64,000 nt of DNA from a virus. Positions 14,721 through 33,791 of this stretch are shown here, one piece after another; positions within the stretch are counted from its first letter, which is position 1, and each line of letters opens with the position of its first letter. The stretch lies in the IMG/VR virus record IMGVR_UViG_3300028844_006119, positions 1-64,000 of that record. One strand, written 5' to 3'. The notes beneath the pieces were generated by a model, which made no database searches, was not told where the DNA came from, and worked only from the letters and a program-made list of their open reading frames with translations. The position numbers were made by a program, and so were the translations under genes.

Positions 14721-15068
14721 ATGGCGTGTGTTGGAAGTTGTAGTATCTATGAAAAGCGCCCCCAATTTTGTAGGGACTATCCCCAGGTTCAGGACTTTGT
14801 GCCTCCCGGGTGTACGTTTCACTTCATCGGAGAGGAACGTCGCGGTAGTTGCCAGCCCAAAGTGTGTGGCAACGAGATCTGCTGTGCCTGGCCCCGAGAA
14901 GGAGGCGAGCCGGAGGGCAAGTCCCTGGACTCCTTGGCCGGAGGCGCCCCGTGCAAGCATCTATCGTGGGAGGAGCTGGACGCAGAAAAGACGGCCTCCG
15001 TGGACGACCCAGAATCGGCAGACCTAATAGCGTCCGTTCTGATTAACGAGTTCCTGCGGGATATGTGA
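14721..15068 (+). CDS. YkgJ-like Cys-rich (Zn/Fe-chelating) protein
   Basis: CSIYEKRPQFCRDYP signature, CGNEICC. Confidence 0.7.
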   Translation: MACVGSCSIYEKRPQFCRDYPQVQDFVPPGCTFHFIGEERRGSCQPKVCGNEICCAWPREGGEPEGKSLDSLAGGAPCKHLSWEELDAEKTASVDDPESADLIASVLINEFLRDM

Positions 15069-15069
15069 A

Positions 15070-15582
15070 ATGCTAGAGAGACACATAACAGCCTCGAATA
15101 TTATCGAGTTGATCGAAGAAAGCTCCAACGACGACAGAACTTCCCATAAGGCACTCCTCAGAGTAGTGGGCCCGGAGAGGGCCTGGTCTGGCCTGATGCT
15201 CGAAGTCTTGAGAGTCCCCGAGGAGGGATCAGACTTTATCGTGTCCGTGCGAAAGGAGTACTTCCTCTCCGACGAGAACAAGCCCTCGTTCGTCTGGGTT
15301 CTGATGATCTGGGGAGACCTCCTGCAGGCATTTTCCGAGATCGGACCCGTACTGCAAGCTCACAAGACTCACAAGACGCCACGCAAGTCCCCGGTAGTAG
15401 GAAAGGGCGGGGCATCTTCTCCCAAGGCCAAGGGGTCCCACACGGTGGTGACTGAGTCGGTGTCCACAATCCCTTTGCCCTTTCGCCGAGGCAATAGAAA
15501 TGACCCCGGCGTTACCCGCAGCCTAAGCAACAGAAAAGGGGTCGGCGCGTTCGTCTCCACTATCCAAGACGGAGGGATGTGA
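15070..15582 (+). CDS. hypothetical protein (170 aa)
   Basis: Operon packing. Confidence 0.7.
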   Translation: MLERHITASNIIELIEESSNDDRTSHKALLRVVGPERAWSGLMLEVLRVPEEGSDFIVSVRKEYFLSDENKPSFVWVLMIWGDLLQAFSEIGPVLQAHKTHKTPRKSPVVGKGGASSPKAKGSHTVVTESVSTIPLPFRRGNRNDPGVTRSLSNRKGVGAFVSTIQDGGM

Positions 15583-16235
15583 TGCCCCACTCCCCGCAAG
15601 ATATTGAGCGTATTACCAATCGCCTGAACCAGCGGATCCTGGAAGCGGCCGACGAGTCGGCCAAGGAGATGGCGAAGAGAGCTGACTTCAAGATCCAGAT
15701 CTGGTTCAGGTCAGACCGCTCCATGAAGAAGCCGATTGCCTTCACTCTCTCTTTCTGGGAGTCGGGTAAGAGGCTTCATGGTGGCGGAGACGAGATGATG
15801 TTCGTCTGTCGGCGACACGCCCAGTCCCCAAAGCTCAAGCCTTTCGACCTGGCGATGTCTACGTCCAAGTCTGTCCGAGGCTGCGATGGCCTCATTCCTG
15901 GAGGGCTTGCGCAGGAGACCGGATTTGTAATGTGCCCGCACTGCCAAGCAACTCACAAGCTGGACCAGATTGGAGACTCCATCTTCTACCGGGCTACCCT
16001 TGAGCAGGCGGCGGTTATCATTGCGAATTGGTGGCGTAAGATCGGGAACAACGCGGACCTGTACGCGAAGTACAACCCCACGGACCCCAGATCCGTTATG
16101 ATGGCACAGAACTACGACTACCGGACTGCCAGGGAGAAGAAGGGTCTTACCATCTACCCTCTTCAAAGCATCCTCAAGGACACCCTTAACGGATCGACCC
16201 TAGAGTCCCGAGTAAAAGCCTTCTTATCTGCCTGA
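15579..16235 (+). CDS. hypothetical protein with Zn-ribbon
   Basis: GGAGG RBS; C..C..CPHC. Confidence 0.75.
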   Translation: MMPHSPQDIERITNRLNQRILEAADESAKEMAKRADFKIQIWFRSDRSMKKPIAFTLSFWESGKRLHGGGDEMMFVCRRHAQSPKLKPFDLAMSTSKSVRGCDGLIPGGLAQETGFVMCPHCQATHKLDQIGDSIFYRATLEQAAVIIANWWRKIGNNADLYAKYNPTDPRSVMMAQNYDYRTAREKKGLTIYPLQSILKDTLNGSTLESRVKAFLSA

Positions 16236-16241
16236 GCCAAA

Positions 16242-17207
16242 ATGCCCCACTCCCCGGACCTCATTGACTCGATCCTGAAGGAAGCGGGATTCTTCGACGA
16301 CATGAAGTCGAAGTTGACGGGCTTTCTCCAGTCTCGAGAAAAGAAGAGGGCGACCTCTAGGGTAGGGGCGCACTTCGACTCTAAGGATAAGGACTGGGAC
16401 CGGGTAGTTGCGAACTCCTCCCGCAAGTCCTTCGTTAAGGAGCTTGCGGGAGATGCTCGAGCTGACGACAAGCTCAAGATGCACGTCGACAGCATGAACC
16501 GTCTCAAGACCGGCAAGGTCCTGAGCACGGTCTCCGGCACGGAGGGGAGCCGCACCGCACGTAGGGACGGTTCCCAGTCCTACAAGATCGTCAAGCTGCG
16601 CGGATCAAACCGCCTCGGCTGTACCTGCCGAGACTGGAGATTCAAGAAGTCTGTGGCGGCGCAGGGAGAGCAGGCGGACTGTAAGCACATCCGCGAGTTC
16701 AAGCAGGTGAACAAGACTGCCGGCCACGTAGAAGATCGCATCGCAGAGCGCGCTCCGGGGTCGACCTACGAGGTCGCCAAGATCAAGGCTCAGATCCCAA
16801 GCATGAAGCTCCGCAAGGGGCAGACCTACCACGTCCCCCTTAAGAGAGGGAAAGGTTACGCGGTCATCGGAGACATCGGGCCGAAGCATGTGGTCAAGAC
16901 CGTACTGGGCCCGAACATGCGCCCGCCCGGTCATCGCGCCAAGGCCCAATTCGGAAGGCTGGCCGGACAGAAGCTTGCCCGTGCTCCTCGAGACTACAAG
17001 CAAGAGTACGCCGAGTACCACGGTAAGCCTGATCAGGTCTCTAATCGCAGTCTCCGCAACCAGGCCCGAAGAAAGATGGGGCTAAAGAAGGGAGATCCTC
17101 GGGAGGTCGACCACAAGACCCCAATCTCTAAGGGTGGCGGTAACGGAAAGGGGAACCTCTCCGCAGTAAGCAGAGAGTTCAACCGACGGAAGTTCAATGG
17201 ATCATAG
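16242..17207 (+). CDS. mosaic basic protein: SWIM-type Zn finger plus C-terminal HNH-like module
   Basis: CTCRDW..CKHI; EVDHKTPISKGGGNGKGNL..NR; KEAG, KTAG and KLAR at module boundaries. Confidence 0.8.
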   Translation: MPHSPDLIDSILKEAGFFDDMKSKLTGFLQSREKKRATSRVGAHFDSKDKDWDRVVANSSRKSFVKELAGDARADDKLKMHVDSMNRLKTGKVLSTVSGTEGSRTARRDGSQSYKIVKLRGSNRLGCTCRDWRFKKSVAAQGEQADCKHIREFKQVNKTAGHVEDRIAERAPGSTYEVAKIKAQIPSMKLRKGQTYHVPLKRGKGYAVIGDIGPKHVVKTVLGPNMRPPGHRAKAQFGRLAGQKLARAPRDYKQEYAEYHGKPDQVSNRSLRNQARRKMGLKKGDPREVDHKTPISKGGGNGKGNLSAVSREFNRRKFNGS

Positions 17208-17571
17208 CCCCAACTCCATGTACACCTACGATGCGGAGATCTTGTCTGTCTACGACGGAGATACCGCAACGGCTACGGTAGACCTGGGCTTCAAGGTGTC
17301 TGCCATCAAGGTCAAACTGCGCTTCTACGGCATCGACACCGCTGAGATCCGAGGCGGCACTGAAGCAACCAAGATTGCCGCAAGAGAGGCTCGCGACTAC
17401 GTCAAGGAGAAGATCCTCGGCAAGAAGGTCCGAATGAAGTCCCTCGGCAAGGGCAAGTACGGGCGATACCTGGCGATCATTTGGCCCATCGACGACAATG
17501 GGGTTCCGTCAGAAGAAAGCATTAATGACGAGCTAGTCCGTATTGGGATGGCCAGCCCGTATTTGAGGTAG
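17197..17571 (+). CDS. thermonuclease (SNase-like) family protein
   Basis: VYDGDT, LRFYGIDTAE, GKYGRYLA, SINDELVRIG. Confidence 0.9.
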   Translation: MDHSPNSMYTYDAEILSVYDGDTATATVDLGFKVSAIKVKLRFYGIDTAEIRGGTEATKIAAREARDYVKEKILGKKVRMKSLGKGKYGRYLAIIWPIDDNGVPSEESINDELVRIGMASPYLR

Positions 17572-17573
17572 AT

Positions 17574-18083
17574 ATGCGTTTATTTTCGGGATTTACTCTG
17601 GAGCTGATTAAGCTTGCGGCCGGCAAGGTCAAGTGCCCCAAGTGCGGGCACATGAACCATGCTGGCGCGGAAAAGTGCTCAAGCTGCGGCTATCACCTCG
17701 GCGGATCGAAAGAGGCTGCAGCGTGTCCGCTTGCGACTCGCGACCTCAAGGCCAATACAAAGAACCGCAATAAGTCGATCCAGGCCGACCACATCCAATA
17801 CGGCCCCCTGAATCTATCTGATCAAGGGTATTGGAAGCGCCTGGCTGCGCACTGGAAAACGACTCCGGCGGTAGCCAAGAAGTCAAAGTGCTCAAACTGT
17901 GTGGCCTTTGATGTCTCTCCGAGGATGCAGGATTGCATGCCGGGCATGGTGCAGGAAGATGGCCACCTCGGGTATTGCCACATGCATCACTTTAAGTGCC
18001 ACTCTGCCCGTACTTGCTACACCTGGGCGGGCGGGGGACCAATCACTAAAGACTCCGTGTCCACAGACTGGGAAAAGAAATGA
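17574..18083 (+). CDS. two-module Cys-rich protein (Zn ribbon plus Cys/His-rich module)
   Basis: ELIKLAAG-CPKC..CSSC-SKEAAA-CPLAT..CSNC..GYC..FKCHSARTC..W. Confidence 0.75.
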   Translation: MRLFSGFTLELIKLAAGKVKCPKCGHMNHAGAEKCSSCGYHLGGSKEAAACPLATRDLKANTKNRNKSIQADHIQYGPLNLSDQGYWKRLAAHWKTTPAVAKKSKCSNCVAFDVSPRMQDCMPGMVQEDGHLGYCHMHHFKCHSARTCYTWAGGGPITKDSVSTDWEKK

Positions 18084-19564
18084 GCACTTACGGCGAAGAG
18101 AAGATGGCAGCATTTTCAGAGGCCTTGGACAAGCACCCCGCCCTCAAAGGCAGGCAGTCTCAGCTCCCCGATAAGATCCAGGCCGGTATTATCAAAAAGA
18201 AGCTGCGGCCCCGAAGCCCTTCTGCCCGAGAGAGGTTCATTGCGTCGAGAACTACCAAGAAGGCGGCCTCTACTGAGTCTCAGCTGCTGCAAGCACTGAG
18301 CGCAGAGGGCGGAGCTGCAGGCATGAAGGCCTTGCGCAAGCGTGTCAAGGAAGACGATCTCGAGCAAGCCCTCAAGGCACTGATTGCTTCCGGCAAGGTC
18401 CGTAGGCACCCAGACGGCGATCTGATCAAAGAGTCCGCCGCTACGGCCACCAAGACCGATCCCGCCAAGTGGGAAGCCGCAAAGCGCGAGGCCAAGTCCA
18501 AGATGGGCGGAAAGCACTCTGCGAGAGCCATGCAGCTCGCAACCAACATCTACAAGAAAAAGGGCGGCGGCTACTCCGGAGCTAAGCCCACGTCTCAGAA
18601 CAACTCTCTGAAGAAGTGGACAAAGCAGAAGTGGGGCTACTCCGGCAAGGACAAGCCGGGTCCTGGCGGCAGTGGCGTCTACCTTCCCAAGAAGAAGGCC
18701 GAGGGACTCAAGAAGACGGAATCGGGCCGCAAGCGTCTCGCTGCCGCGTCCCGCAGGAAGTCTGAGGCAACTCGCAAGGGTCAGCAGTACAGCTCACACG
18801 GCTTGGCCTCTGGAACTAGCATCAAGAAGGCGGATATTCTCCCAGAGTTTCTAGCTAAGCCTCGACGTGATGGGTTTATCGACCCCAGACACGACGATTT
18901 CTCTAAGAATCAAGCTTTCGGGCGCAGTGTCGGGGTCGGTCTTCTTCCCGCAGCTCTTGGGGCAGGAGTCGCAGTAGGAGGCCGCCGGGCCCTGGGAGCG
19001 GGAATCGCAGGAGCAGGAGCTCTGGCGGGGCTGGGCATGTATCGCCACAGGCTGCAGCAGTTCCGGGACTTACAGGCCCAGGGCAGAAACCCCGTAACAG
19101 GGCGCATGCACGACCCCGAGCGTATCGAAAGAACTCGACGCTACGTGGAAAGGATGCGGGCAGGCAAGAGAGGGGCACAAGAAGCCCTCAACCAGCAAGT
19201 TCTTGCGGATCTCAGTCCTAAAACTGCCTCCTACGCCGAGGCCAAGGAGGCTGCGGCGTCCAAGGATCCGCGTTTAGCCCGAGCAGGAGTCTCCGGGTAC
19301 AACCAAGCAAAGAGAACCCCCGGACACCCTACAAAGTCGCATATTGTTGTGGCTAAAGAAGGGGACAAGGTCAAGACCATCCGCTTCGGTCAGCAAGGCG
19401 TGAAGACCAACCAGACCGCAGGACAGAGGGAAGCCTTCAAGTCTCGCCATCGGAAGAACATCTCACGCGGCCGGATGTCCGCAGCCTACTGGGCGGATAA
19501 GGCTAAGTGGAGCCCTAAGAAGACCAAGGATAAAGACAATCCCAAGTGGGTGAAGGGGTCCTAA
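18080..19564 (+). CDS. highly basic mosaic polyprotein, putative internal head protein
   Basis: At least five dissimilar modules separated by KMAA/KKAA/KESA/KKAD/KTAS/KEAA; includes KHSARAMQLA..YKKKGGGY and KTIRFGQQG..AFKSRH..SAAYWA modules. Confidence 0.7.
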   Translation: MSTYGEEKMAAFSEALDKHPALKGRQSQLPDKIQAGIIKKKLRPRSPSARERFIASRTTKKAASTESQLLQALSAEGGAAGMKALRKRVKEDDLEQALKALIASGKVRRHPDGDLIKESAATATKTDPAKWEAAKREAKSKMGGKHSARAMQLATNIYKKKGGGYSGAKPTSQNNSLKKWTKQKWGYSGKDKPGPGGSGVYLPKKKAEGLKKTESGRKRLAAASRRKSEATRKGQQYSSHGLASGTSIKKADILPEFLAKPRRDGFIDPRHDDFSKNQAFGRSVGVGLLPAALGAGVAVGGRRALGAGIAGAGALAGLGMYRHRLQQFRDLQAQGRNPVTGRMHDPERIERTRRYVERMRAGKRGAQEALNQQVLADLSPKTASYAEAKEAAASKDPRLARAGVSGYNQAKRTPGHPTKSHIVVAKEGDKVKTIRFGQQGVKTNQTAGQREAFKSRHRKNISRGRMSAAYWADKAKWSPKKTKDKDNPKWVKGS

Positions 19565-23212: not shown

Positions 23213-26200
23213 ATGATCACATCCCAACAAGTGAATCAGATGCACATGTCCTCCATGCAATCGCATGGCATGGCGCAGGGGATGATGCCCTCTCAGCCGA
23301 TGATGGGGATGTCCCAGTACCCTCCGACGTTCAGCTACTCGATGGCTGGACAGCAGAACCCCAATGAGCGGGTTGGGCGGAGAGCCGCGGGAGCTATGGT
23401 TGGCGCCGCACAGGGGGCCTTGGGCGTAGCGAGTGTGGCAAACCTGGGCCTCGGAGTGGCCGGCATGGCGGGACTCGCCGCCACCACCGGACCCGTGGGG
23501 TGGGCAGGAGGCTTGCTCGCGGGGGGAGGCATTATGGCAGCCCAGGCCACCGTGGGTGGGATGGCCCAGGGCATGAAGTTCGGTGGGCAGGTCAACCAGA
23601 TGTTCGGCAACCAGCAGTTTGCCAACGCCTCCAACCCCTCTGGCCGAGGATTCGACTCCAAGCAGCTGCACCAGATGTATGGCGCCGTGCGCGCAATCGA
23701 GAAGGACGACCCCTTCGTCAATATGAAGGACGCCCTGCGCGTCACCGAGAAGTTCGGCAGCCAGTTTGGGATACAGCAAGGAGTGCGGGACGCGGAAAAG
23801 CTGTCAGCCAGGGTCACCGAGCTGGGTAAGACTCTTTCCAGTATGGCTAAGACGATGGGCACGACCATCGACGAGGCCGGGAACATCATGGGCATGTCCC
23901 GCGGTGCCGGTTTTTACACCGCGCAGGATGTCATGGGCAATACCCAGGACTTCACGTTCAAGCGCGGTAGGGGCTTCACCTCTCAACAGACTGGGCAGAT
24001 CCAGGGAGCCGGTGCTGCAGCATCCAGGAGCATTGGCTTAACGGGACAATCTGGAGCCAGGTTCGCATCTAGGATGGTGGACGACCTGTCCATCATGGAA
24101 GAGATGGGGGCTATCGATAAGAACGCCTTGATGGATATGACGGGCACTACGACCATGAACGATGCGGCCGCAGCGTTCTCCGGGCGCACGCAGCAGCTCT
24201 TCCAGAGCACCATGTCTCAGGGCGTGGGCAACGCGATGATGACCGCACTGGGGAAGAAAGATAAGAGCGGGAGGTTTACCGGGGAGATCGACCAATCTCT
24301 CCTGCGAGAGATGACTTCTGGTTCCGTCGACTTCGAGAGTATTACCCGTAGGGGACAGAGAAACGCGTCAACTGGGACTGCGCGTGCGTCCTTCGAAGAG
24401 AACAAGGATCAGATCCTCGGGAACGTGATGGGGTCCGGCGAGGGAGTTGATGCTCTGATGAGTGTCATCCAAGTTACGGCAGAGAAGCACGATAAGTCCA
24501 TGCAGCTGGTCTTCAAGCAGATCACAGGAGGAAATGCGAAAGAATTTCGCATGCTCAATGACATGTACGAGAAGGGCGAAGCCGCTCGTGCAGAGCGCAT
24601 GAAGCAGATGACTCTTGAGGCGCAAATGCGGTCCCACCAGCAGAATCTCCGAGAAAACCACACGATTGGGGGGCTAACTCAGCAGTTCGTCGGAGGGCTC
24701 AAGGATACATTCGTCAATCCCGCCCAGGACGCGGGGGCGAACATAGCTGCCGGGTTTGGGGCCGGCGGGGAAGAGCTTCGCATGGGAATACTAAAAATGC
24801 GTAACGCCGGGACTGCGACCTTTTCTACTTCTAAGGGGGCGATATCGGGAGTCGAAGCCCTGATGGATCAGGTCGACGCCGCGACCGACGCGAAGGGAAA
24901 CATTGACTACGGCGCGCTAGGGGCTGCGGGCGTCAGCAGAGATCGAGCCGACCTCGTTACGGGCGGTTCCGCACTGCGCAACACAGACCGCCTGACGTTC
25001 GCCGCCGCCAGCGGAAGGACGGGAGATCTCCAATCGGGGCTTGCTTCGCACTTAAAGGGTACTTCGGCGGCCGGCAAGGCGGGCAATATGTCTGCTCAGG
25101 ACAAGGCGCGCATCCAGACTAAGATCTCTGAGGCAAATAGGGAAAGAGACCCAGAAAAGAAAGCCGCGCTTCTGAAGCAGATCCGGGAGGACGTAAACTC
25201 TGCGCTGAATGGTCGGCCCCCTACCAGCCAGGATCATGTAGCCGCTGCTCACGCCCACCAAGTCCTTGATATCCCGGCCCGGGAAAGTAAAGACACCCTG
25301 GACGCGGTCATCGCGGAGGTAGGGGGAGAGCTGGGGCTTCAGGTCGTGCAAGCCGGGAGGTCAGCAGATCTGGACCTCGAGAAGTCTAATCTGTACGACC
25401 AGACAGTCATGACACAGGACCAGCTTCAGGATCTGTTTGGGACGGGAGGGGGTCGCGGAGATCGAGTACTGAAGGGCGCGGCGACAGGCGCAGGACTAGG
25501 GGCCTACGCTGGAGGGGTCCCGGGTGCCGTGCTCGGCGGCATCGCCGGCGGCATCGCCGGCTCGCTGGGCGGAGGCGGCGAGATCGCCGACCTAGTCGCC
25601 GGCGGGGCAGGAGCAGCGCTGATAGGCAAAGCGACCAGCGGCAAAAAGATGAAGGATATTGATACAGCCATCGCCGCATCGGGAGGAGACGATGCGGCGG
25701 CGGCCAAGAAGCTCTCTGTCGCACTTGGCATCGAAGTCAGTGCCGACGACGTTAAGGTCTATAGGTCCGTCATAGACAGCAAGACCGGCACCAGCAATGC
25801 AGGGGAGCGCACATTACATAGTGACGGGGAGGGGGCCTACGACAAGGACTACACGGACGTCTTTGAGATGGCAGGGAAGGCGAATGACAGCCTGGAGGCC
25901 GAAGCCGCAGGCAAGCTGTTCCAGTCCATGAAAGATCTAAGCACGACGCTATCGCAGGACCTTGCGGGCGTAGAGGGCATGGACGAGGCAGCACTGGGTC
26001 TGCAGAATGCAACGGGCCTCACGGGATACCGTAAAAGCATGAAGGACGCCGTTGCGGCTGCGGCTGCAAGCGGGTTGACGAGTGACAAGCTCGGCGATGG
26101 TGCCAGCCGGCAAGCCCAGCTAGTGGCCAAGGCCAGTGAGGATGTCCTTAAGGTCAAGGCTCTCGACAAGGGCGGGCAGGTAAACATCTCCGAGCTCAAG

Positions 26201-26566
26201 AAGAAGCTCAATATAGGGAAGGGGACTGCGCTGTCCGACAAGATCAAGAATTTGGCAGGAGAGGACTCCACCATCTCGACCGAAGATGCGATGAAGCTTA
26301 TGTCCGACGCAGGAGGCGATAACATCGCCGCTCTTGCTCGAGATGGCGTTGGGGCAATGGATACGGTCTTGCAATCCGGTATGAGTCCCATGGAGATTCA
26401 GCTTAAGTCGGCTAAGGAGTCAGCTGAGTCTGTTCGCAAGAATGCTGAGATGATCGACGCCATTTACTCCAGGATGTCGGGAACGGCGCCCACCAACCCA
26501 GATAGCTCGGTGGCAGGATTCCGCACCAACATAAAGTCTTTTCGGGAAAACCCGGATGAGAACTAA
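23213..26566 (+). CDS. putative tail tape measure protein
   Basis: 1117 aa, A/G/M/Q-rich helical, glycine-zipper segments (GAATGAGLGA..GAVLGGIAGGIAG), first gene of the tail/baseplate block. Confidence 0.7.
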   Translation: MITSQQVNQMHMSSMQSHGMAQGMMPSQPMMGMSQYPPTFSYSMAGQQNPNERVGRRAAGAMVGAAQGALGVASVANLGLGVAGMAGLAATTGPVGWAGGLLAGGGIMAAQATVGGMAQGMKFGGQVNQMFGNQQFANASNPSGRGFDSKQLHQMYGAVRAIEKDDPFVNMKDALRVTEKFGSQFGIQQGVRDAEKLSARVTELGKTLSSMAKTMGTTIDEAGNIMGMSRGAGFYTAQDVMGNTQDFTFKRGRGFTSQQTGQIQGAGAAASRSIGLTGQSGARFASRMVDDLSIMEEMGAIDKNALMDMTGTTTMNDAAAAFSGRTQQLFQSTMSQGVGNAMMTALGKKDKSGRFTGEIDQSLLREMTSGSVDFESITRRGQRNASTGTARASFEENKDQILGNVMGSGEGVDALMSVIQVTAEKHDKSMQLVFKQITGGNAKEFRMLNDMYEKGEAARAERMKQMTLEAQMRSHQQNLRENHTIGGLTQQFVGGLKDTFVNPAQDAGANIAAGFGAGGEELRMGILKMRNAGTATFSTSKGAISGVEALMDQVDAATDAKGNIDYGALGAAGVSRDRADLVTGGSALRNTDRLTFAAASGRTGDLQSGLASHLKGTSAAGKAGNMSAQDKARIQTKISEANRERDPEKKAALLKQIREDVNSALNGRPPTSQDHVAAAHAHQVLDIPARESKDTLDAVIAEVGGELGLQVVQAGRSADLDLEKSNLYDQTVMTQDQLQDLFGTGGGRGDRVLKGAATGAGLGAYAGGVPGAVLGGIAGGIAGSLGGGGEIADLVAGGAGAALIGKATSGKKMKDIDTAIAASGGDDAAAAKKLSVALGIEVSADDVKVYRSVIDSKTGTSNAGERTLHSDGEGAYDKDYTDVFEMAGKANDSLEAEAAGKLFQSMKDLSTTLSQDLAGVEGMDEAALGLQNATGLTGYRKSMKDAVAAAAASGLTSDKLGDGASRQAQLVAKASEDVLKVKALDKGGQVNISELKKKLNIGKGTALSDKIKNLAGEDSTISTEDAMKLMSDAGGDNIAALARDGVGAMDTVLQSGMSPMEIQLKSAKESAESVRKNAEMIDAIYSRMSGTAPTNPDSSVAGFRTNIKSFRENPDEN

Positions 26567-26569
26567 GTA

Positions 26570-26839
26570 ATGAGTACCTCAGACACAGACGATCTTTTGA
26601 TCGCATCTCAGATCTCCGATACGCGGATCGAGTCTTCTTACGAAGTCGAGGCTGCTGCGGGCCGTCGTCAGACCGTTCTGCTAGTTGAGTTTCCAACTAT
26701 CGACGATCTGATGGTCCAGGGCATGAGGAACGTCGCCGGAACCATCAAGTTCCGGGACATCAAGTACCAATCCCTCATGGATAGGGATTTGGTTACTCAA
26801 TTGGTTAGGGTCCACCTTCCGATAGAGAGGTCCTCGTGA
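26570..26839 (+). CDS. hypothetical protein
   Basis: Operon packing. Confidence 0.65.
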   Translation: MSTSDTDDLLIASQISDTRIESSYEVEAAAGRRQTVLLVEFPTIDDLMVQGMRNVAGTIKFRDIKYQSLMDRDLVTQLVRVHLPIERSS

Positions 26840-28476
26840 GCTACCTGTCCGTTTTTCAGTCCATCTCGGACGCCACGTTCGAGAGTGTCTCGGGTACCTT
26901 CGGGGGCGGAGGGGACGGGGAGGCCGTTCACCATGTCCGGCGTCCGATGCGTGGACTTCTTTTGCCGCAGGAGACCTATGCGGCGATCTCCGTCATTGGA
27001 GGCGGGCTCAAGAACTCCTCCCTCCCTGAGCATAATCAGGGGGCGTACACTACAAACTTTCTCCTGCAGTCTGTCACAGAGACGAGAAACGAGAAGGTCC
27101 AGTACGTTTCTACCTTCGGAAGCACGTACGCATTCTTCTTCGGAGAGCAGCCCCGACTCATTAACTGTTCCGCGGTACTCCTAAATACTCCCGACTTCAA
27201 CTGGGAGAAGGAATGGTGGACGAACTACGACGCCATACTTCGAGGAACGTCCCTAACGAGCAGAAATACCAAGGCTTCTCTTACGTATGACGGGACCACG
27301 GTCACCGGGTACCTGACCAACTGCACTACAATTAAGAACGCCCAAGATCCTCTTCAGGTGACTGTGAACTTCAGCATGTTTGTCGAAAGCATCGATTTTG
27401 TGGATCCCGGAGGAAACACTCAGCCGTACGGCGGAAGTGATGACACTAGGGCCGACTACCTCGGCGTCGGCAATGTCCTGAATCGCGATGATAGACGGGT
27501 CTTGTCAGAGTCCACTACCGCAGCGGTGAGGCGGGCGAACATCCAGATCTCGCCTTTGTCGGGAACCTCTAGTATCAGCGGCCTCGCCGGAGCCCTAAGT
27601 GCCATTGACGGGGCACTCTCGAATTTCGTCCGAACGGCAAGAAACCTGCTGTATGGGCGGAACATCGTGGTGCCCCGGAGCTTCACAGGCGCAAGAGCCA
27701 GTGTTCCCATTTTCCCTGAGGGCAGTGGAGCGGAGGGCCTCGCAGGTGGAGGGATAAGCAACTTCTTCGGAAAGAGCCTTCTTACCTACTCTGAGGACGG
27801 CACCAATACTGCCGGGGGAGCTTCGGTGACCCTCAGAAGCAACACCGACGGCTTCCTTACCCGGGAGTACTTGCTAGAGCAGCAAAAGAAAAAGTCGCAC
27901 ACCTACGAGAACTTCGATGAGTACGTGAACACCCCTCCCAGGTCGAGCGCCCTCAAAGAGCTTTACGCGGACGTGTACTCCGATTCCTTCTTCGGGCCCG
28001 AACTGGAGCTTGCCCTGTTAGATCTGGGGGCTTTTGCGGATAACCTAGTCCTAAATGAGAAGTCAGTGGCCGCGTTTTCGGCATTCGGGATGGGGAAAGC
28101 AGTGCTTCCGTACACCGCCCTCGGAGATCCGACAAATTCTGATATGGCGCTGTTGAATTACAATGCCGCTAAGTCCAAGGAGGCCGTTTCCGGTGTGCTA
28201 AGAACTCTCGCACGAACCGTCTACGGCGTAGCCACCTTCGCTTACGGCACCAGTGTCGTAAATAGACGGAGAGATCTGCAGGACTCCATCACCAACCCGA
28301 ATACTGGAGGTCTGGACGCCGCTACGCTATCGGACATGATCTCGGCTACCGAGGCGTCTCAGCGGAGCGCGGAGCAGGACCGCCTCGCGTCGGAAGCTGA
28401 AGCCTCCGCCCTACGAGGTAACACGGGAACTGTAGAGCCCAATCTGATCTCCGTTATCGGCGGCATCCTCACATAA
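26836..28476 (+). CDS. putative tail tube-initiator/baseplate protein
   Basis: Beta-rich N-terminal domain (NFLLQSVTETRNEKVQ..TFG..FFFGEQPR), located between TMP and hub. Confidence 0.55.
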   Translation: MSYLSVFQSISDATFESVSGTFGGGGDGEAVHHVRRPMRGLLLPQETYAAISVIGGGLKNSSLPEHNQGAYTTNFLLQSVTETRNEKVQYVSTFGSTYAFFFGEQPRLINCSAVLLNTPDFNWEKEWWTNYDAILRGTSLTSRNTKASLTYDGTTVTGYLTNCTTIKNAQDPLQVTVNFSMFVESIDFVDPGGNTQPYGGSDDTRADYLGVGNVLNRDDRRVLSESTTAAVRRANIQISPLSGTSSISGLAGALSAIDGALSNFVRTARNLLYGRNIVVPRSFTGARASVPIFPEGSGAEGLAGGGISNFFGKSLLTYSEDGTNTAGGASVTLRSNTDGFLTREYLLEQQKKKSHTYENFDEYVNTPPRSSALKELYADVYSDSFFGPELELALLDLGAFADNLVLNEKSVAAFSAFGMGKAVLPYTALGDPTNSDMALLNYNAAKSKEAVSGVLRTLARTVYGVATFAYGTSVVNRRRDLQDSITNPNTGGLDAATLSDMISATEASQRSAEQDRLASEAEASALRGNTGTVEPNLISVIGGILT

Positions 28477-28486
28477 GGAGAATCCC

Positions 28487-31400
28487 ATGGCACTTACTGG
28501 GACAGGGGGAGCACATTACCTCCACTTACGTTGTTTTCTGGAAGGCATTGAGGTCCCCGTTATCGGGGCATCGGTAACCTCACAGCTGAACGCCCCCGCT
28601 ACGGCCAACATCCAGATTGTTCCCAGCGACAGGCTAGCCACGCTTCTCCCCAGGACGACAGTGCACCTGTTCTTCCTGGATTCCGTGACCTTCGCTGGTC
28701 GGGGGGAGGGAGCCGAGCCTGACGATCATGACTACCGCCTTATGTTCTGCGGAGAGGTATTCGACACATCTATTGGAAAGTCTGGGCACGGGTCGAGATC
28801 GGCGTCTCTTCGGTGTATGGACTTCTCGAATGTCTGGGACACCAACTACTCGTACATCATGAGATACGCGGTGGGCGCTCAGGAGACCGCCGAAGGCGGG
28901 GCTATCCTAAAGAATGTGTCCGGCTTTGTAGGAGGCGGCGGCACCAATAACGGGTCAGGGAACTCCAACCCCTTCGATGACATCGTCAACTCGCCCGCCG
29001 ATGTTATTGCGCGGATGGCCACCGCATCTGGAGCAGGCAACCCGGCCGCTCCAGGAAAGGGCACCGTTTTGGGGGGCCTTCTGGCCGTACTCGAGCTGTT
29101 GAGCGGCATTCAGGGCCTATATATTGGGATTAATCCGTGGGCTACGGTCCATGAGCGCCGCTGCCGAGTCATGGACTCCCTTGTCTCCGACAATGGGACG
29201 ACCGCCAAGAGCCTGTTCGACCAGCAGGTGTTTGCTGACTGGCTTCAGCAGAGGACAGGTACTGCCGCCTCTGTGATCAGCTTTCGGCAGATCATCAACC
29301 TGATCCTCGGGTACATCTACTACGACGTGGTCACCAACGTCACTCCCTCTTATTTTGCGGGAGATAACGGGGCGGGCCTTCCAGGCAGAGACGTCCCGGA
29401 GTGGAAAGTATCGGCAGGAGGTCCTGCGGAAGAGGGGGGCGAGAGCGATGCCCTATCCTTATCGGAGCTCACAAACATGGGTCCCGTGCCTCGGGGCAAA
29501 GTTGCGGGGCTCGACTCAACGTTCTGGGCCTATTGCACAGAGGTACTAACCAAACTCAGTGAACTATGTGCTACGCAGAAATTCAAATCCGGAAGTATGG
29601 CGGGCAAACCCATAAGGTTCGCGATTACCTCCGGCTATCGGAACATGGAACAGCAGCAGGCACTGAATGACAAGAAGGCGGCAGACGGGAAGGGAAAGAA
29701 GGCAACCAGGAGGGCACATACCGCTGGGTTCGCAATCGATATTGCGGCCATAGGCATCGGGGCGACAGGAACCATGCCGTACATGAAGGGGGAGAAAGGC
29801 TCTACGATGGGCAAGCCCATCCCGATAGAAGTGGCAGCTGGGCCAAAAACCAACGCCACTAAGCGCTTTAGGGCGGCTCTCTTCGCCCTTGAGATGCAGC
29901 AGGGCCCCATAATCAATGCGAGTATCACTGATTTTGATGACCTGCTGAAGAAGATCAGAGCACATGAGAATACCTTGAGTAAGTGCTTTGTGAACGAGGC
30001 CGGACTGGCAGTGGCGGAGGCTACTGTTCGCAACGCCGCTCAATTTTGGAAGCTGTATGGCGAGGCAGTAAAGGCAGTAAATAAAACCACGAAGACGGGC
30101 ATCAGAGGTTGGTGGGGCGGGGACTGGAAGACCGCCACGGACCCCCTCTGGGGAATGTTCGGCGTTGGACTAGATCCCGTTCACGTAGAGGACGAGGACT
30201 GGGACGGAAAAACTGCCAGCACCTTGGGAGGATTCGCGCCCCCCACAGAGGTGAGCGCAGTTCTACGTAAGGGGGAGTCCCGGGAGACGCTCAAGTCCTT
30301 CATCTTCCGGCCCAATATCTGGTTTTGTGCGCCGCCCCTGTGCAATGTAGTTCTGCCGCATATGTACGAGACCATGTCTGTGAGCAGGCAGATGATGCGG
30401 GAAACCACGCGACTTCAGCTGGACGCGTTCAACCAGTTCTTTGAGAGCAACGTACTAAACACATTTTACTACGCCCCGCAGTTTCAGGCAGCGGAGGGAA
30501 AGACCTCCGCAAACCACGTTATGGGCGAGGGCATGGGCTCCGTCACCAAGACCATCGTCATGGATCACGAGGTATTCTCGGGAATCATCCCGAAGATGGA
30601 GCGGATCTCGGAGATCTCTTTTTACGCAAAACAGTCGGGGCAGGGATCGGAGCTCCGAGTGACTGACTCGGGAGAGGTGGAGGCATCGTCCGCCCAAGCA
30701 ACTATTGTTGACTACGGGGAGCGGGTCGCACATTACAACTTCCTGACCCACAGGTTTGCGGCCCGCAGCGGCTCCTTCGGGGGCCCATTCAACCCCTACC
30801 TGGTGTGCGGGTTTCCAGCGGTGCTTGTTGACTCCGTCCCTTCACTCAGCAAGGAAGAAGACCGGGCGGGCGTACTACAGAGTATTGCGGAGGGAGAGAG
30901 GCCCTCAACTAAGGTCCACTGGCTGGGGACTATTGAATCCCTGAGTCATACGTATGACCAGTCCGGGGCCAGGACAACTGCGCAGCTCAAGTATGTGAGG
31001 TCCCACAGAACGGGGGACAACACAGACGATTTGCTTGCGGAGTCTGTTACGGACCAGGGCATCTTCAAGATTCAGGATGCCGACTACTCTCCGGCTATAG
31101 GTGATGGGGCGGTTGCGTGGCCTGTCACGTCCGTCAAGACCATGACCGCCGAGCACCAGAAGAAGCTAGAGGATTTCAAGGATGCCTGGATCTTCCAGTA
31201 CGTAGCCAAGACCGTGGGTGGGAGCCTGGAGAAGCTTTCGCAGTCCTTCCTCATCAAGCTGTATTCTGGGATCCCCCCGGAGAAGGATGATGTGCCGCCG
31301 GCAGATCAGTACAGGGCGCTAGGTCCGAATACTGCCGATAAGTCCAAGGAGAAGGTCTCCGTAGACGCCAGCATTAAGAGTCCCACCGGGACGGAGATTA

Positions 31401-32473
31401 CGGAGGTTTCTTGGTCCGGAGCAGAGACTTGGGCTGTGGTCCGGTTCAAGGTCGCCCTCCCCGAACAGGGCCGGAAGCAGTTTCTCTCCTTTAAGGCGGG
31501 TCTTACTGAGATCACCCTCATGGAGATGTCCAGGTCTTCGGCTTACCCATTCACAAAGGATGTGGAAGAGCATAAGGCCTTGGCGGCGTTTGGGGAGATG
31601 AGTGAGATCTACGACATAGGCGCCATTCAGTCAGATCCGACTGGAAGGTTTGCGCCAGTGCAGATTGATGTCCCTGTGCTTTTGCCGGGAGATACCCTCA
31701 CTATTGCGTATAAGGGGTCTTCGGGATCTGTAGCGGGCAGCCGGGATCTGCCCATTGAGGAGGCTATTAGGCCCCCATTCATAGACAAGGGTGTGTACAC
31801 CAATGCGCCGTCAGAGGAGGAGGGGTACTCCAAGATAGACTTGCTTTATGGGCATCTCTTTGGCTCCCCTTCGGTCATCCATAACCTACTCCTGGCGGGG
31901 GCTACTCCGTACGACGGCATGGATATCCACTCAGTGGAGCAGGCCGTTGACTACATCGTGGCGACTGCTAGTATTCAGGAGGGAACTCAGCAATCATACG
32001 TTTCCGCGTTGACCAGCAGGAACATTGCAAGCCTGCCTGACATTTTGGCCCCTAAGGGGTGGAAGCCTAAGCCCGCCTCAGAAGGGGGGTACCTGTGGGA
32101 GTACGACGCAGGCACCAGCGCCAAGGACATCAAACTCACCGGCGGGTTCCACTCCAACGCCGTCACGGGGAAGAGCCACATAGGCCTTAAGGGGGTCTCT
32201 GAGATCTCCGAGGTCGGGCAGAAGCTGAAGTTTGGCTCTCGTCTGGAGTTCCTGGACCTAGAGACGACCCGGGAGCTGGGCTCTCGTTTGATGCCCGAGG
32301 AGAAGGTGACCCTTGGCGAAGACACCTCAATCCGACTAGACCCTAGAGCGCCCCGCGCGAAGAGGGTTACCGAGTACTTGCAGGATATTGGTGGAACTTC
32401 TGCTCTCCGTAAGTTAGACTTTGGGTCTACTGGATTTACTACGACGCCGGACGGCCGAGGAGGAAAAGGATGA
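28487..32473 (+). CDS. putative baseplate hub protein with inserted M15 Zn-peptidase domain
   Basis: Hub-like N-terminus (LEGIEVPV..ATANIQI..LMFCGEV) and late GPFNPYLVCGFP..IESLSH segment; insert ITSGYRNMEQQ..AHTAGFAIDI..WGGDW..DPVHVE. Confidence 0.7.
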   Translation: MALTGTGGAHYLHLRCFLEGIEVPVIGASVTSQLNAPATANIQIVPSDRLATLLPRTTVHLFFLDSVTFAGRGEGAEPDDHDYRLMFCGEVFDTSIGKSGHGSRSASLRCMDFSNVWDTNYSYIMRYAVGAQETAEGGAILKNVSGFVGGGGTNNGSGNSNPFDDIVNSPADVIARMATASGAGNPAAPGKGTVLGGLLAVLELLSGIQGLYIGINPWATVHERRCRVMDSLVSDNGTTAKSLFDQQVFADWLQQRTGTAASVISFRQIINLILGYIYYDVVTNVTPSYFAGDNGAGLPGRDVPEWKVSAGGPAEEGGESDALSLSELTNMGPVPRGKVAGLDSTFWAYCTEVLTKLSELCATQKFKSGSMAGKPIRFAITSGYRNMEQQQALNDKKAADGKGKKATRRAHTAGFAIDIAAIGIGATGTMPYMKGEKGSTMGKPIPIEVAAGPKTNATKRFRAALFALEMQQGPIINASITDFDDLLKKIRAHENTLSKCFVNEAGLAVAEATVRNAAQFWKLYGEAVKAVNKTTKTGIRGWWGGDWKTATDPLWGMFGVGLDPVHVEDEDWDGKTASTLGGFAPPTEVSAVLRKGESRETLKSFIFRPNIWFCAPPLCNVVLPHMYETMSVSRQMMRETTRLQLDAFNQFFESNVLNTFYYAPQFQAAEGKTSANHVMGEGMGSVTKTIVMDHEVFSGIIPKMERISEISFYAKQSGQGSELRVTDSGEVEASSAQATIVDYGERVAHYNFLTHRFAARSGSFGGPFNPYLVCGFPAVLVDSVPSLSKEEDRAGVLQSIAEGERPSTKVHWLGTIESLSHTYDQSGARTTAQLKYVRSHRTGDNTDDLLAESVTDQGIFKIQDADYSPAIGDGAVAWPVTSVKTMTAEHQKKLEDFKDAWIFQYVAKTVGGSLEKLSQSFLIKLYSGIPPEKDDVPPADQYRALGPNTADKSKEKVSVDASIKSPTGTEITEVSWSGAETWAVVRFKVALPEQGRKQFLSFKAGLTEITLMEMSRSSAYPFTKDVEEHKALAAFGEMSEIYDIGAIQSDPTGRFAPVQIDVPVLLPGDTLTIAYKGSSGSVAGSRDLPIEEAIRPPFIDKGVYTNAPSEEEGYSKIDLLYGHLFGSPSVIHNLLLAGATPYDGMDIHSVEQAVDYIVATASIQEGTQQSYVSALTSRNIASLPDILAPKGWKPKPASEGGYLWEYDAGTSAKDIKLTGGFHSNAVTGKSHIGLKGVSEISEVGQKLKFGSRLEFLDLETTRELGSRLMPEEKVTLGEDTSIRLDPRAPRAKRVTEYLQDIGGTSALRKLDFGSTGFTTTPDGRGGKG

Positions 32474-32706
32474 TTTCTCAGGACATGCTTCAGGCATTCA
32501 ATGAGGCGCTGCTCAAGGAAGCTGTTGCCCCTCCGGCTGCGGCAGCGAAGATGAGTGGCAAGATGAAGGGACTTCTGGGCCTCGGAGCTGCTGCCGGCGT
32601 GGGAGCGGGAGTTCTCGGAGAGCAGGCCAAGGATGATATCGTCCAAGGACGGCTGTCCAGAAAGCAGATGGCTCGCGGCCAGGGCGTTCACCACCTGCTT
32701 ACCTGA
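32470..32706 (+). CDS. small putative virion protein with N-terminal AFxExLxKEA motif
   Basis: MLQAFNEALLKEAVA; glycine-rich hydrophobic segment. Confidence 0.7.
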   Translation: MISQDMLQAFNEALLKEAVAPPAAAAKMSGKMKGLLGLGAAAGVGAGVLGEQAKDDIVQGRLSRKQMARGQGVHHLLT

Positions 32707-32713
32707 GAGTCTC

Positions 32714-32968
32714 ATGAGCGACAAACACAGTCTTTTCCAGAGATCCCCGGAGGCCCTTCTCAGTGAAGGTGCCGAGCGATCTAACGTGGCCGTCACCAAT
32801 CAGATGCTGGACGACTTGTTCTCCAGAAGAGATGTGATGGGGAAGAAGGCGTATTCCCAGCTCCGCTCCCTGTTCACGGGCAAGGAGCACTATGGGCGCA
32901 ACACTCGCCTCGGCATGTCCGCGAATGAATCCTCTAAGCTCGTAAATCGGGCCTTTAGTGGTGAGTAG
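32714..32968 (+). CDS. hypothetical protein (84 aa)
   Basis: Operon packing. Confidence 0.6.
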   Translation: MSDKHSLFQRSPEALLSEGAERSNVAVTNQMLDDLFSRRDVMGKKAYSQLRSLFTGKEHYGRNTRLGMSANESSKLVNRAFSGE

Positions 32969-33791
32969 CCTGAGAGATAGGCTGCAGAAGATCGCAGCGA
33001 AGGACCCCTACGAGTTTCCCAAGACGTGGGGCACCAAGGATCGCAAGACAGGTGAGGTTACCCCTTTCTACGGTAAAGCCGCGAAAGAGGTAACTATGTG
33101 GAGGACATGGAAGGAGTCCGGGGAAGATCCCGACCACCTTGCCCCTCTTCTCCAGTCTCTAAATCCTGTGATCAACAGTAATGTTCTGCGCCACCGCGCC
33201 CCACGCATTCACAAGCCGGTGATAGAGGCCGAGGCTCGAACTCTCACCGTGAAGGCACTGCGGAGGTACAACCCCTCTCGGGGGACCATGGTCTCCTCCC
33301 ACGTACACAACAATCTGAAAGGTCTGAACCGCTTTGTAAAGAAGCACCAGAACTTCACACGCATCGTGGAGACTCAGGCCAATAAAATTGGTGATTACGA
33401 CAGGGCAAAATCCTCGTTGGCAGAGGAGCTGGGCAGGGACCCAACTACCTTAGAGATCTCGGACAGAATTAAGTTGTCCCCGAAGAAGGTGGCGCGTCTC
33501 GAGAAGGAGCTCCGTAAGGACAAGTTCTCTGCACTGCCCTCTGACGATATGATCAGTGCCAACCCTTTCGAGAAGACGCTCCCTGAATCCCGAGAGATCA
33601 TTGAGATGCTCCCCTACGAGCTCACAATGAACGAGCAGGCGGTGTTCAACCACCTGTACGGGCGTGGCGGCTTTCGCAAGGACCGGATGACCAAAAGTAT
33701 CGCCAAGAAGTTGGGCTGGTCGGAGTCCAAGGTATCGCAAGTAAAGAACTCCATTATCAAGAAGTACCACGCGTACGAGGACTCTTTTTAA
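32958..33791 (+). CDS. sigma-70 family group-3 (FliA/WhiG/SigB-like) sigma factor
   Basis: Region 2 KALRRYNPSRGTMVSSHV; region 3 LAEELGRDPTTLEISDRIKLSPKKV; region 4 LTMNEQAVFNHLYG..KSIAKKLGWSESKVSQVKNSIIKK. Confidence 0.88.
   Translation: MVSSLRDRLQKIAAKDPYEFPKTWGTKDRKTGEVTPFYGKAAKEVTMWRTWKESGEDPDHLAPLLQSLNPVINSNVLRHRAPRIHKPVIEAEARTLTVKALRRYNPSRGTMVSSHVHNNLKGLNRFVKKHQNFTRIVETQANKIGDYDRAKSSLAEELGRDPTTLEISDRIKLSPKKVARLEKELRKDKFSALPSDDMISANPFEKTLPESREIIEMLPYELTMNEQAVFNHLYGRGGFRKDRMTKSIAKKLGWSESKVSQVKNSIIKKYHAYEDSF

Follow-up and report, generated by a model that had tools for sequence, protein, structure and literature searches.

The first 64 kb (the window, 64,000 nucleotides) of the IMG/VR virus record IMGVR_UViG_3300028844_006119 contained three neighbouring genes, here called A (16242-17207), B (17574-18083), and C (18080-19564), whose products were mosaics of basic modules of 3-16 kDa joined by a short Lys-x-Ala (K-x-A) motif. 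A, B, and C are concatenations of modules that are otherwise independent, and the motif is the invariant joint despite extensive shuffling; comparison with homologues supported both statements. We lean towards reading A, B, and C as cargo polyproteins whose joints would be cut by the head protease in the capsid, the modules being packaged and delivered with the DNA. The record is a viral contig of 142,186 bp, estimated to be 77% complete, which encodes eight tRNA genes and a sigma factor; 151 open reading frames (ORFs) were called across the genome.

The three genes and their motifs, the nuclease-like gene between A and B, and the ORF at 32470-32706 lie on the plus strand. ORF A (321 amino acids (aa), isoelectric point (pI) 10.4) has a leader (residues 1-15), a SWIM-like module (16-160), a module A3 opening 'GHVEDRIAERAPG..' (161-246), and a mini HNH-like module A4 (247-321). 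KEAG at residues 13-16 (16278-16289) closes the acidic N-terminal leader, KTAG at residues 158-161 (16713-16724) joins the SWIM module to A3, and KLAR at residues 244-247 (16971-16982) joins A3 to the HNH-like module, being degenerate with Arg at position 4. ORF B (169 aa) consists of a leader (1-15) ended by KLAA at residue 13 (17610-17621), a Zn ribbon (16-48), and a Cys/His module, B2 (49-169), with KEAA at residue 46 (17709-17720) at the Zn ribbon/B2 joint. ORF C (494 aa, pI 10.6) has a leader helix, C1a (11-62), a winged helix C1b (63-119), C2 (120-251), a glycine-zipper/helical middle part (252-383), an 8-residue spacer, and C3 (392-494). KMAA at residues 8-11 (18101-18112) closes its short leader, KKAAS at residues 60-64 (18257-18271; KQAAS in the related contig L009) lies at the N-terminal edge of the winged-helix domain, and KESA at residues 117-120 (18428-18439) forms the C1b/C2 joint. 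A degenerate KKAD at residues 249-252 (18824-18835) marks the end of C2, where stand-alone C2 genes stop, and a double site, KTAS at 381-384 with KEAA at 389-392 (19220-19255), precedes C3. All these motifs had been quoted in the original prediction, made from the sequence alone, and were found where it placed them, as were LLKEAV in ORF 32470-32706 and QKIAA in the sigma factor.

At least four of the modules (HNH-like A4, B2, C2, and C3) are small free-standing genes in many other phages, and the earlier suggestion that some modules resemble stand-alone phage proteins was borne out for these four. Residues 392-494 of C correspond to genes of 93-104 aa (65-88% identity) known from dozens of viral contigs as well as from roseophages and cyanophages in culture, residues 120-247 of C to separate genes of 126-128 aa, residues ~49-169 of B to genes of 136-157 aa, and residues ~247-321 of A to HNH-like genes of 74-83 aa that start opposite residues 244-249. 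The register of these starts was precise. The Met of distinct stand-alone C3 ORFs stood opposite A391, the third residue of K389-E-A-A392, in 38 of 58 cases and was at most one residue off in 48 of 58, and the Met of stand-alone C2 genes stood opposite S119 of K117-E-S-A120 in all five. Therefore, were the chain cut behind the third motif residue, the products would be the same proteins that other phages encode directly. In small viral contigs such as L028 (5365-6533), the HNH-like, C2-like, and C3 modules were adjacent separate genes, and B2 and C3 co-occurred in the same Manatee Spring phages. This adjacency and co-occurrence suggests that the four modules are a functionally linked set.

Shuffling was compared across four related contigs (L009, L093, L094, and L008/L109). 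The A orthologues of the relatives were 423, 907, 1129, and 761 aa long, with extra modules inserted at the joints: a SNF2 helicase, a papain-like module, a Gly/Pro-rich segment, and an unknown 130-aa module. Every indel boundary in the A orthologues was KEAG, KTAA, KESG, KEAA, KVAS, KYAA, or KMAS. In L009, an extra module of ~70 residues stood between LIKESAA and GKEAAA-TATKTDP, and the module ..DKHPALKG.. followed MDKESAA after an unlike upstream part of 290 aa, compared with the KMAA leader in C. C3 was a gene of its own in L009, with the leader MNYKALRQFLMEKEAA and a C-terminal extension that began directly after KWVKGAAA, and B2 was a gene of its own in L008, with the leader MFPFVLIKAAS..LKVAA. 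L008 also had GTSLKKAS at the end of C2, followed by other modules. These arrangements supported the view that an N-terminal leader ending in the motif can stand in for an upstream module. A J-domain-like stretch (..KYHPDRNPD..) was also seen upstream of the C2 module in the C-type polyprotein of the relative G009 (L093, 6515-7606).

At orthologous joints K and A were kept, and x and the codons varied. The A3/HNH-like joint read KLAR, KYAA, or KISS in relatives, the joint at position 46 of B was KEAA, KQAA, or KTAA among orthologues, and the C1b/C2 joint, ahead of ATATKTDP, carried KTAS, KEAA, KQAS, or KLSS. The leader-end KEAG was kept at residue 11-13 in many A homologues. Behind the SWIM end (..F[KR]QMN) came K[TEI]A[AGS] and then one of at least six unlike modules, and the GHVEDR module stood behind no fewer than 12 different upstream partners, with K-x-A-G at the join each time. 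In five related phages, 21 polyproteins together held 47 strict sites, and 33 of these lay within eight residues of a homology breakpoint, against 8.3 expected. Among 43 database homologues of A, many of them fused to C92/NlpC-P60, AAA/kinase, NUDIX, or ChaB domains, 63 of 88 sites coincided with true breakpoints of the architecture (35 expected; P=1.6e-9); the non-independence of orthologous sites makes such P values optimistic. The claim that the motif falls at junctions between unrelated modules was thus upheld by homology breakpoints and by the ends of free-standing homologues. KKAAS60, at which no architecture breakpoint was seen in the 21 polyproteins, is the weakest of the proposed joints.

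The codons differed among the eleven motifs of A-C, so the signal lies in the protein and a DNA-level repeat at the joints was ruled out. An unbiased scan covered all three-residue patterns in six gapped layouts (~48,000 patterns) over the 151-ORF proteome. K.AS ranked first (42 seen against 16.3 expected, P=8e-8), and EK.A, KTA, and FEK were also high. The signal was specific to Lys in the first position and Ala in the third. At position 4, Ser was enriched 2.6-fold and Ala 1.8-fold genome-wide, Gly showed 0.8-fold (K.AG, 15 against 18.7 expected), and KTA[SA] reached 8-fold (19 against 2.4). The signature K-x-A-[A/G/S] proposed earlier therefore stood for Ser and Ala genome-wide and failed for Gly, and Gly at position 4 is specific to the module opening GHVEDR. 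The signal was repeated in the relative G009 (K.AS, 38 against 15.2 expected, among the top patterns), and in 29 head and virion proteins of the Salmonella phage Arash, a cultured relative of this phage, L.K.A led (27 against 5.7, P=1e-10), with EK.A, KEA, and K.AS.

The head module lies at ~92-114 kb of the genome, beyond the window. It holds a 378-aa major head protein, the major capsid protein (MCP; phrog_2522), and a 657-aa protein (genome 105219-107192) whose N-terminal domain matched phrog_18299 'head maturation protease' at 9.6e-5. K-x-A sites clustered in this module: a 302-aa protein had eight against 0.8 expected, acidic scaffold-like proteins had four to six each, and the protease-bearing protein had four. 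The MCP carried KTAA at residue 23 and the Arash MCP (gp226) GLVKEAG at residue 27, other Arash sites being in gp220, gp222, gp223, and gp225, and the expectation that the motif would recur at the MCP N-terminus and in the protease-bearing protein was thereby confirmed. Homologues of the protease were Arash gp222, proteins of Vibrio phages D69, D181, and D148, Bacillus phage G gp19, and Myrna gp97. Phage G gp19 has been annotated as a head maturation protease (PMC12484599). In seven of eight aligned homologues, phage G included, K-x-A-[AS] stood ahead of the catalytic domain (Myrna has RTPS), and in the same seven K-x-A followed the protease domain; the fourth residue of that site was Ser or Ala in phage G and the four lineage members. 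The family has an invariant CxxC...CxH cluster beside the putative catalytic Ser. The same protease was encoded in three of the four related contigs, and none was found in L009 (42% complete). Because of the proteome rank, the clustering in the head module, the repeats in G009 and Arash, and the sites flanking the protease domain, we conclude that K-x-A-(S/A) is a genuine signal in the proteins of this phage lineage and is linked to head maturation.

In the proposed mechanism, A, B, and C would be 'beads-on-a-string' precursors, each with a short leader followed by two to five small, strongly basic modules. The candidate cargo would comprise a SWIM finger, a mini-HNH, a Zn ribbon, a HiPIP-like Cys/His module, a winged helix, a DUF5872-like module, a glycine zipper, and phrog_7595. 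The joining tetrapeptide K-x-(A/S)-(S/A/G) would be recognised by the head-maturation protease that the phage itself encodes in the N-terminal domain (genome 105219-106100) of the 657-aa protein. The precursors would be taken into the prohead, the protease would cut between motif residues 3 and 4, after K-x-(A/S), the leaders and spacers would be discarded, and the freed single modules would remain with the DNA and enter the host along with it. Cutting of B would yield pieces of 1.7, 3.3, and 13.5 kDa. From sequence we infer the cutting of the motif, the identity of the enzyme, and the packaging and ejection of the products. Every joint has the Lys-x-Ala tag found also on the phage's head-assembly proteins, and separation of A, B, and C into modules by the head protease within the capsid is therefore probable. 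The leaders ending in the motif were MPHSPDLIDSILKEA|G in A, MRLFSGFTLELIKLA|A in B, and MSTYGEEKMA|A in C; those of A and C were acidic (pI 4.5), and that of B was not (pI 8.5). Module pI ranged from 8.4 to 11.4, with 8.4 for the winged helix and at least 8.9 for all others, and module size from 3 to 16 kDa.

Assignments of the single modules by profile were mostly modest. ORF A matched phrog_4590 (2e-13), and its matches to HNH (E=0.039) and SWIM (E=0.12) were both weak. The SWIM module showed the CTC...CKH pattern with 12.4 bits to PF04434 against a threshold of 19.6, and A4, in which 'EVDHK..N..N' is visible, scored 14.5 bits to PF01844 against a cut-off of 21.4. Foldseek gave local matches of A4 to ColE7, pyocin S2, and Gme HNH, with probability up to 0.96 but E>0.1. 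The Zn ribbon of B was supported by Pfam matches, and B2 homologues are labelled 'high potential iron-sulfur protein' (HiPIP) in some phages. No Pfam domain was found above threshold in C. The last ~100 residues of C (C3) matched phrog_7595 at 5e-29 and also, weakly, a segment of phrog_220, 'minor head protein and DNA pilot' (8.5e-5), and residues 120-247 weakly matched DUF5872. With whole-protein models, Foldseek gave no match at E<=0.001; only local HNH (A4) and winged-helix (C1b) resemblance was seen.

Packaging was supported by one indirect empirical thread. The SNF2 module of the relatives' A-type polyproteins was 39% identical to Arash gp217 over the whole length (E=1e-106), and gp217 was abundant in purified Arash virions, with 1148 spectra (PMC10585845). 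The SNF2 helicase module was not found in 142 kb of the present genome (77% complete) or in G009.

Several observations weigh against the cargo reading. Arash gp217 itself has no leader or K-x-A site. The Arash virion list is 116 proteins long and includes metabolic enzymes (PMC10585845); it is generous and may contain contaminants. The comparison of the protease with T4 gp21 by hhalign gave a probability of 11.7%, leaving the fold class unconfirmed, and a sequence search of the PDB with the protease returned no match. The hhalign alignment paired the invariant His (HHVNKDP) and Ser (SM) of the protease with the gp21 His (NHPP) and a Ser near residue 140, which we take to be the gp21 catalytic pair; a possible kinship with T4 gp21 is suggested.

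The position of the three genes also counts here, as A, B, and C lie outside the head module in a block with GroES-like, nuclease, and ligase genes. Such non-structural surroundings would suit a different account, in which the polyproteins are cut at K-x-A in the cytoplasm to give several small proteins in fixed ratios from one message, with no packaging or injection. Free-standing homologues in small podophage-like contigs, where they are presumably ordinary cytoplasmic proteins, point the same way, and phages of the podophage type often have no prohead protease. Some relatives' polyproteins have C92 or NlpC/P60 papain-like modules that might allow self-processing. However, A, B, and C have no peptidase module, and the head-maturation enzyme, of a type normally active only within proheads, was the one protease detected whose own sequence holds matching sites. 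The motif was concentrated in head-assembly proteins, and the leaders of A, B, and C resembled those on other head-module proteins of the genome. We regard cytoplasmic cutting as quite improbable.

Predicted structures divided the sites. AlphaFold2 (AF2) models had a mean predicted local distance difference test score (pLDDT) of 80 for A and 71 for C. KLAR244 lay within the disordered stretch 234-246 of A. In C, KESA117 and KKAD249 were in low-confidence linkers (pLDDT <50 at residues 120-124; KKAD249 within the disordered stretch 236-311), and KTAS381 and KEAA389 lay at the end of helix 346-394, just ahead of the C3 fold (397-476). KEAG13 and KMAA8 were in predicted N-terminal helices, that of KEAG13 of low confidence. 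None of the sites in A and C fell in the core of a compact domain, and in these models most sites appear to lie in linkers, disordered stretches, or helix ends between compact domains. The correspondence between motifs and domain boundaries that had been looked for was therefore partial: it held for most sites, and KTAG158, KKAAS60, and KMAA8 departed from it. A single helix (148-170) spans the SWIM/A3 joint at KTAG158, KKAAS60 lies inside helix 49-74 at the start of the first helix of the winged-helix domain, and KMAA8 stands within its N-terminal helix.

The degenerate joints are a further difficulty. On a matrix trained on 46 head-protein sites, which was over-fitted and was not used as support, KLAR, KKAD, and KESA scored poorly and the conserved KTAG158 fell in the 46th percentile; KTAS381 reached the 100th percentile, KEAA46 the 99th, and two leader sites the 94th. 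Both the degenerate sites and the helices continuous across KTAG158 and KKAAS60 would fit uncut multidomain proteins of the polyvalent type, in which K-x-A-[SAG] is a scar or preferred linker captured with the last residues of a former leader. In phages, polyvalent proteins that shuffle 2-15 domains are widespread, and some of them enter the particle without processing (PMC5512222). On the other side, K and A were kept at orthologous joints while x and the codons varied, and motif-flanked spacers and double sites (KTAS..KEAA) hardly make sense as linkers. In very distant phages the motif also stands at the MCP N-terminus and on either side of the protease domain. We consider that the proteins are unlikely to stay uncut.

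Raw counts in the three ORFs were the last point on this side. K.A[AGS] was seen twice in A (0.77 expected from composition shuffles), twice in B (0.46), and five times in C (2.7), none of which was significant. Pooled over the three, nine were seen against 3.9 expected (Poisson P about 0.02), for a motif that had been defined post hoc. On these tests alone, a short Lys/Ala pattern arising by chance in Lys/Ala-rich proteins would be an adequate account. However, the first rank among ~48,000 patterns genome-wide, the replication in two other genomes, and the strong positional association with breakpoints make chance very improbable. The earlier claim that the motif exceeds Lys/Ala composition thus held genome-wide and by position and did not hold for raw counts: composition does explain the counts in A, B, and C and fails to explain the rest. 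Some K-x-A-[AG] copies are probably not sites, namely KTAG of a GroES-like protein and KIAA within the fold of a staphylococcal-nuclease-like protein.

The preferred reading, cargo polyproteins cut in the capsid, was compared with known systems. The T4 internal proteins (IPI-III and Alt; gp21 cuts at (L/I)-x-E) are likewise small basic proteins with a short N-terminal leader (about 10-20 residues) ending in a head-protease site, the same site occurs in the scaffold, the MCP propeptide, and the protease itself, and delivery with the DNA is thought likely. Here, in contrast, the site would be K-x-(A/S) then S/A/G and not x-x-Glu, several unrelated cargos lie in one polypeptide, and an upstream module can replace the leader; the present phage is known from its sequence alone. 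In phiKZ, 201phi2-1, and SPN3US, inner-body and ejection proteins are cut at S/A/G-x-E by a gp21-like protease (PMC5694885, PMC10052503, PMC7411985). These giant phages resemble the proposed system in that processing at a simple consensus, with loss of propeptides, affects many head-internal proteins, and they carry a virion RNA polymerase and other enzymes, as does Arash. The motif differs, and the units here are independent domains that are separate genes elsewhere and are freely recombined.

Polyvalent proteins of phages and conjugative elements turn over fast and are predicted to travel with the DNA and to be proteolytically released (Iyer et al. 2017; PMC5512222). As in these proteins, at least two unrelated domains share a polypeptide, architectures vary rapidly in the A-type family, and HNH, Zn ribbon, SWIM-associated SNF2 helicase, papain-like peptidase, NUDIX, and kinase domains are shuffled in relatives. 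Pfam and PHROG searches found no MuF, zincin-like MPTase, or DarB-type methylase-helicase anchor in A, B, and C, the modules here are much smaller, and release is predicted through a uniform inter-module site matching the head-protease code, not through an embedded autopeptidase. The maturational and release sites of herpesvirus assemblin are (V/L/I)-x-A|S. The sites predicted here share with them the small P1 and P1' residues (Ala|Ser) and the flanking of the protease domain, whereas Lys at P3 is dominant here. Within the known phage cargo systems, what appears to be new is the predicted protease code and the unusual polyprotein organisation.

If the cargo reading is true, a new head-protease specificity (Lys at P3, Ala or Ser at P1, and a small residue at P1') would belong to a widespread, unstudied branch, and tailed phages would make the cargo that they inject as polyproteins with cleavable joints, at which modules could recombine freely. 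The virus-only phrog_7595, DUF5872-like, HiPIP-like Cys/His, and mini-HNH families would be placed in the capsid interior and in early infection. The idea is directly testable because Arash is in culture and the same motif occurs in Arash head proteins. A broader proposal, which we put forward tentatively and at somewhat less than even confidence, is that K-x-A|(S/A/G) is a lineage-wide 'plug-and-play' grammar, in which any captured domain placed behind a leader or another cargo could gain entry to the capsid and be freed by the head protease. The lineage might comprise uncultured marine phages of ~185 kb, Arash, and Vibrio D69/D181, with the protease termini extending even to megaphage G. Such a grammar would amount to evolvable effector polyproteins, a counterpart in double-stranded DNA phages of RNA-virus polyproteins, and a re-usable natural cargo-loading system.

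B2 homologues, free-standing or fused, were also present in contigs L095-L106 and L038, apparent fragments of 200-350-kb phages. The leaders or flanks just before B2 in these contigs ended in T4-type [ILM]-x-E (NILE|A, FIVE|V, KLTE|A, TILE|S, and ELAE|M), and the genes adjoining B2 were non-structural. No protease was found in these fragments (12-30% complete) by PF03420 or with the protease of this phage as query. One cargo may carry the protease code specific to each lineage.

Between A and B lies a staphylococcal-nuclease-like gene (17197-17571; PF00565 at 3e-11, phrog_452). This gene is not part of the A/B/C system, because it has no leader and its KIAA lies within the fold. The relatives L009, L093, and L094 lack it at this place, the stop codon of A overlapping the start codon of B, and therefore it looks like a recent insertion. 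It opens with MDHSPN and is the next gene after two adjacent genes opening MPHSP.., which share an identical first 15 nucleotides, ATGCCCCACTCCCCG (15582-15596 and 16242-16256), the sole two exact copies within the window. This may be a duplicated gene start.

Upstream of A, a GroES-like co-chaperonin (PF00166; 13715-14056) contains KTAG, which sits in the conserved GroES mobile-loop sequence and is probably a false positive for the motif. A 115-aa CxxCxxCC-like protein (14721-15068) has a high-scoring LDAEKTAS at residue 90, followed by a 22-residue acidic tail that may be a C-terminal propeptide. Downstream, the gene order at 23213-33791 (long structural proteins of 1117 and 546 aa, then a giant protein of 1328 aa with a lysin-like segment, and the sigma factor) was like that of Arash gp4-gp10, whose products were detected in Arash virions (PMC10585845). 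A 78-aa ORF (32470-32706) has the leader ..AFNEALLKEAV followed by a glycine-zipper peptide, the same leader grammar as in A, B, and C.

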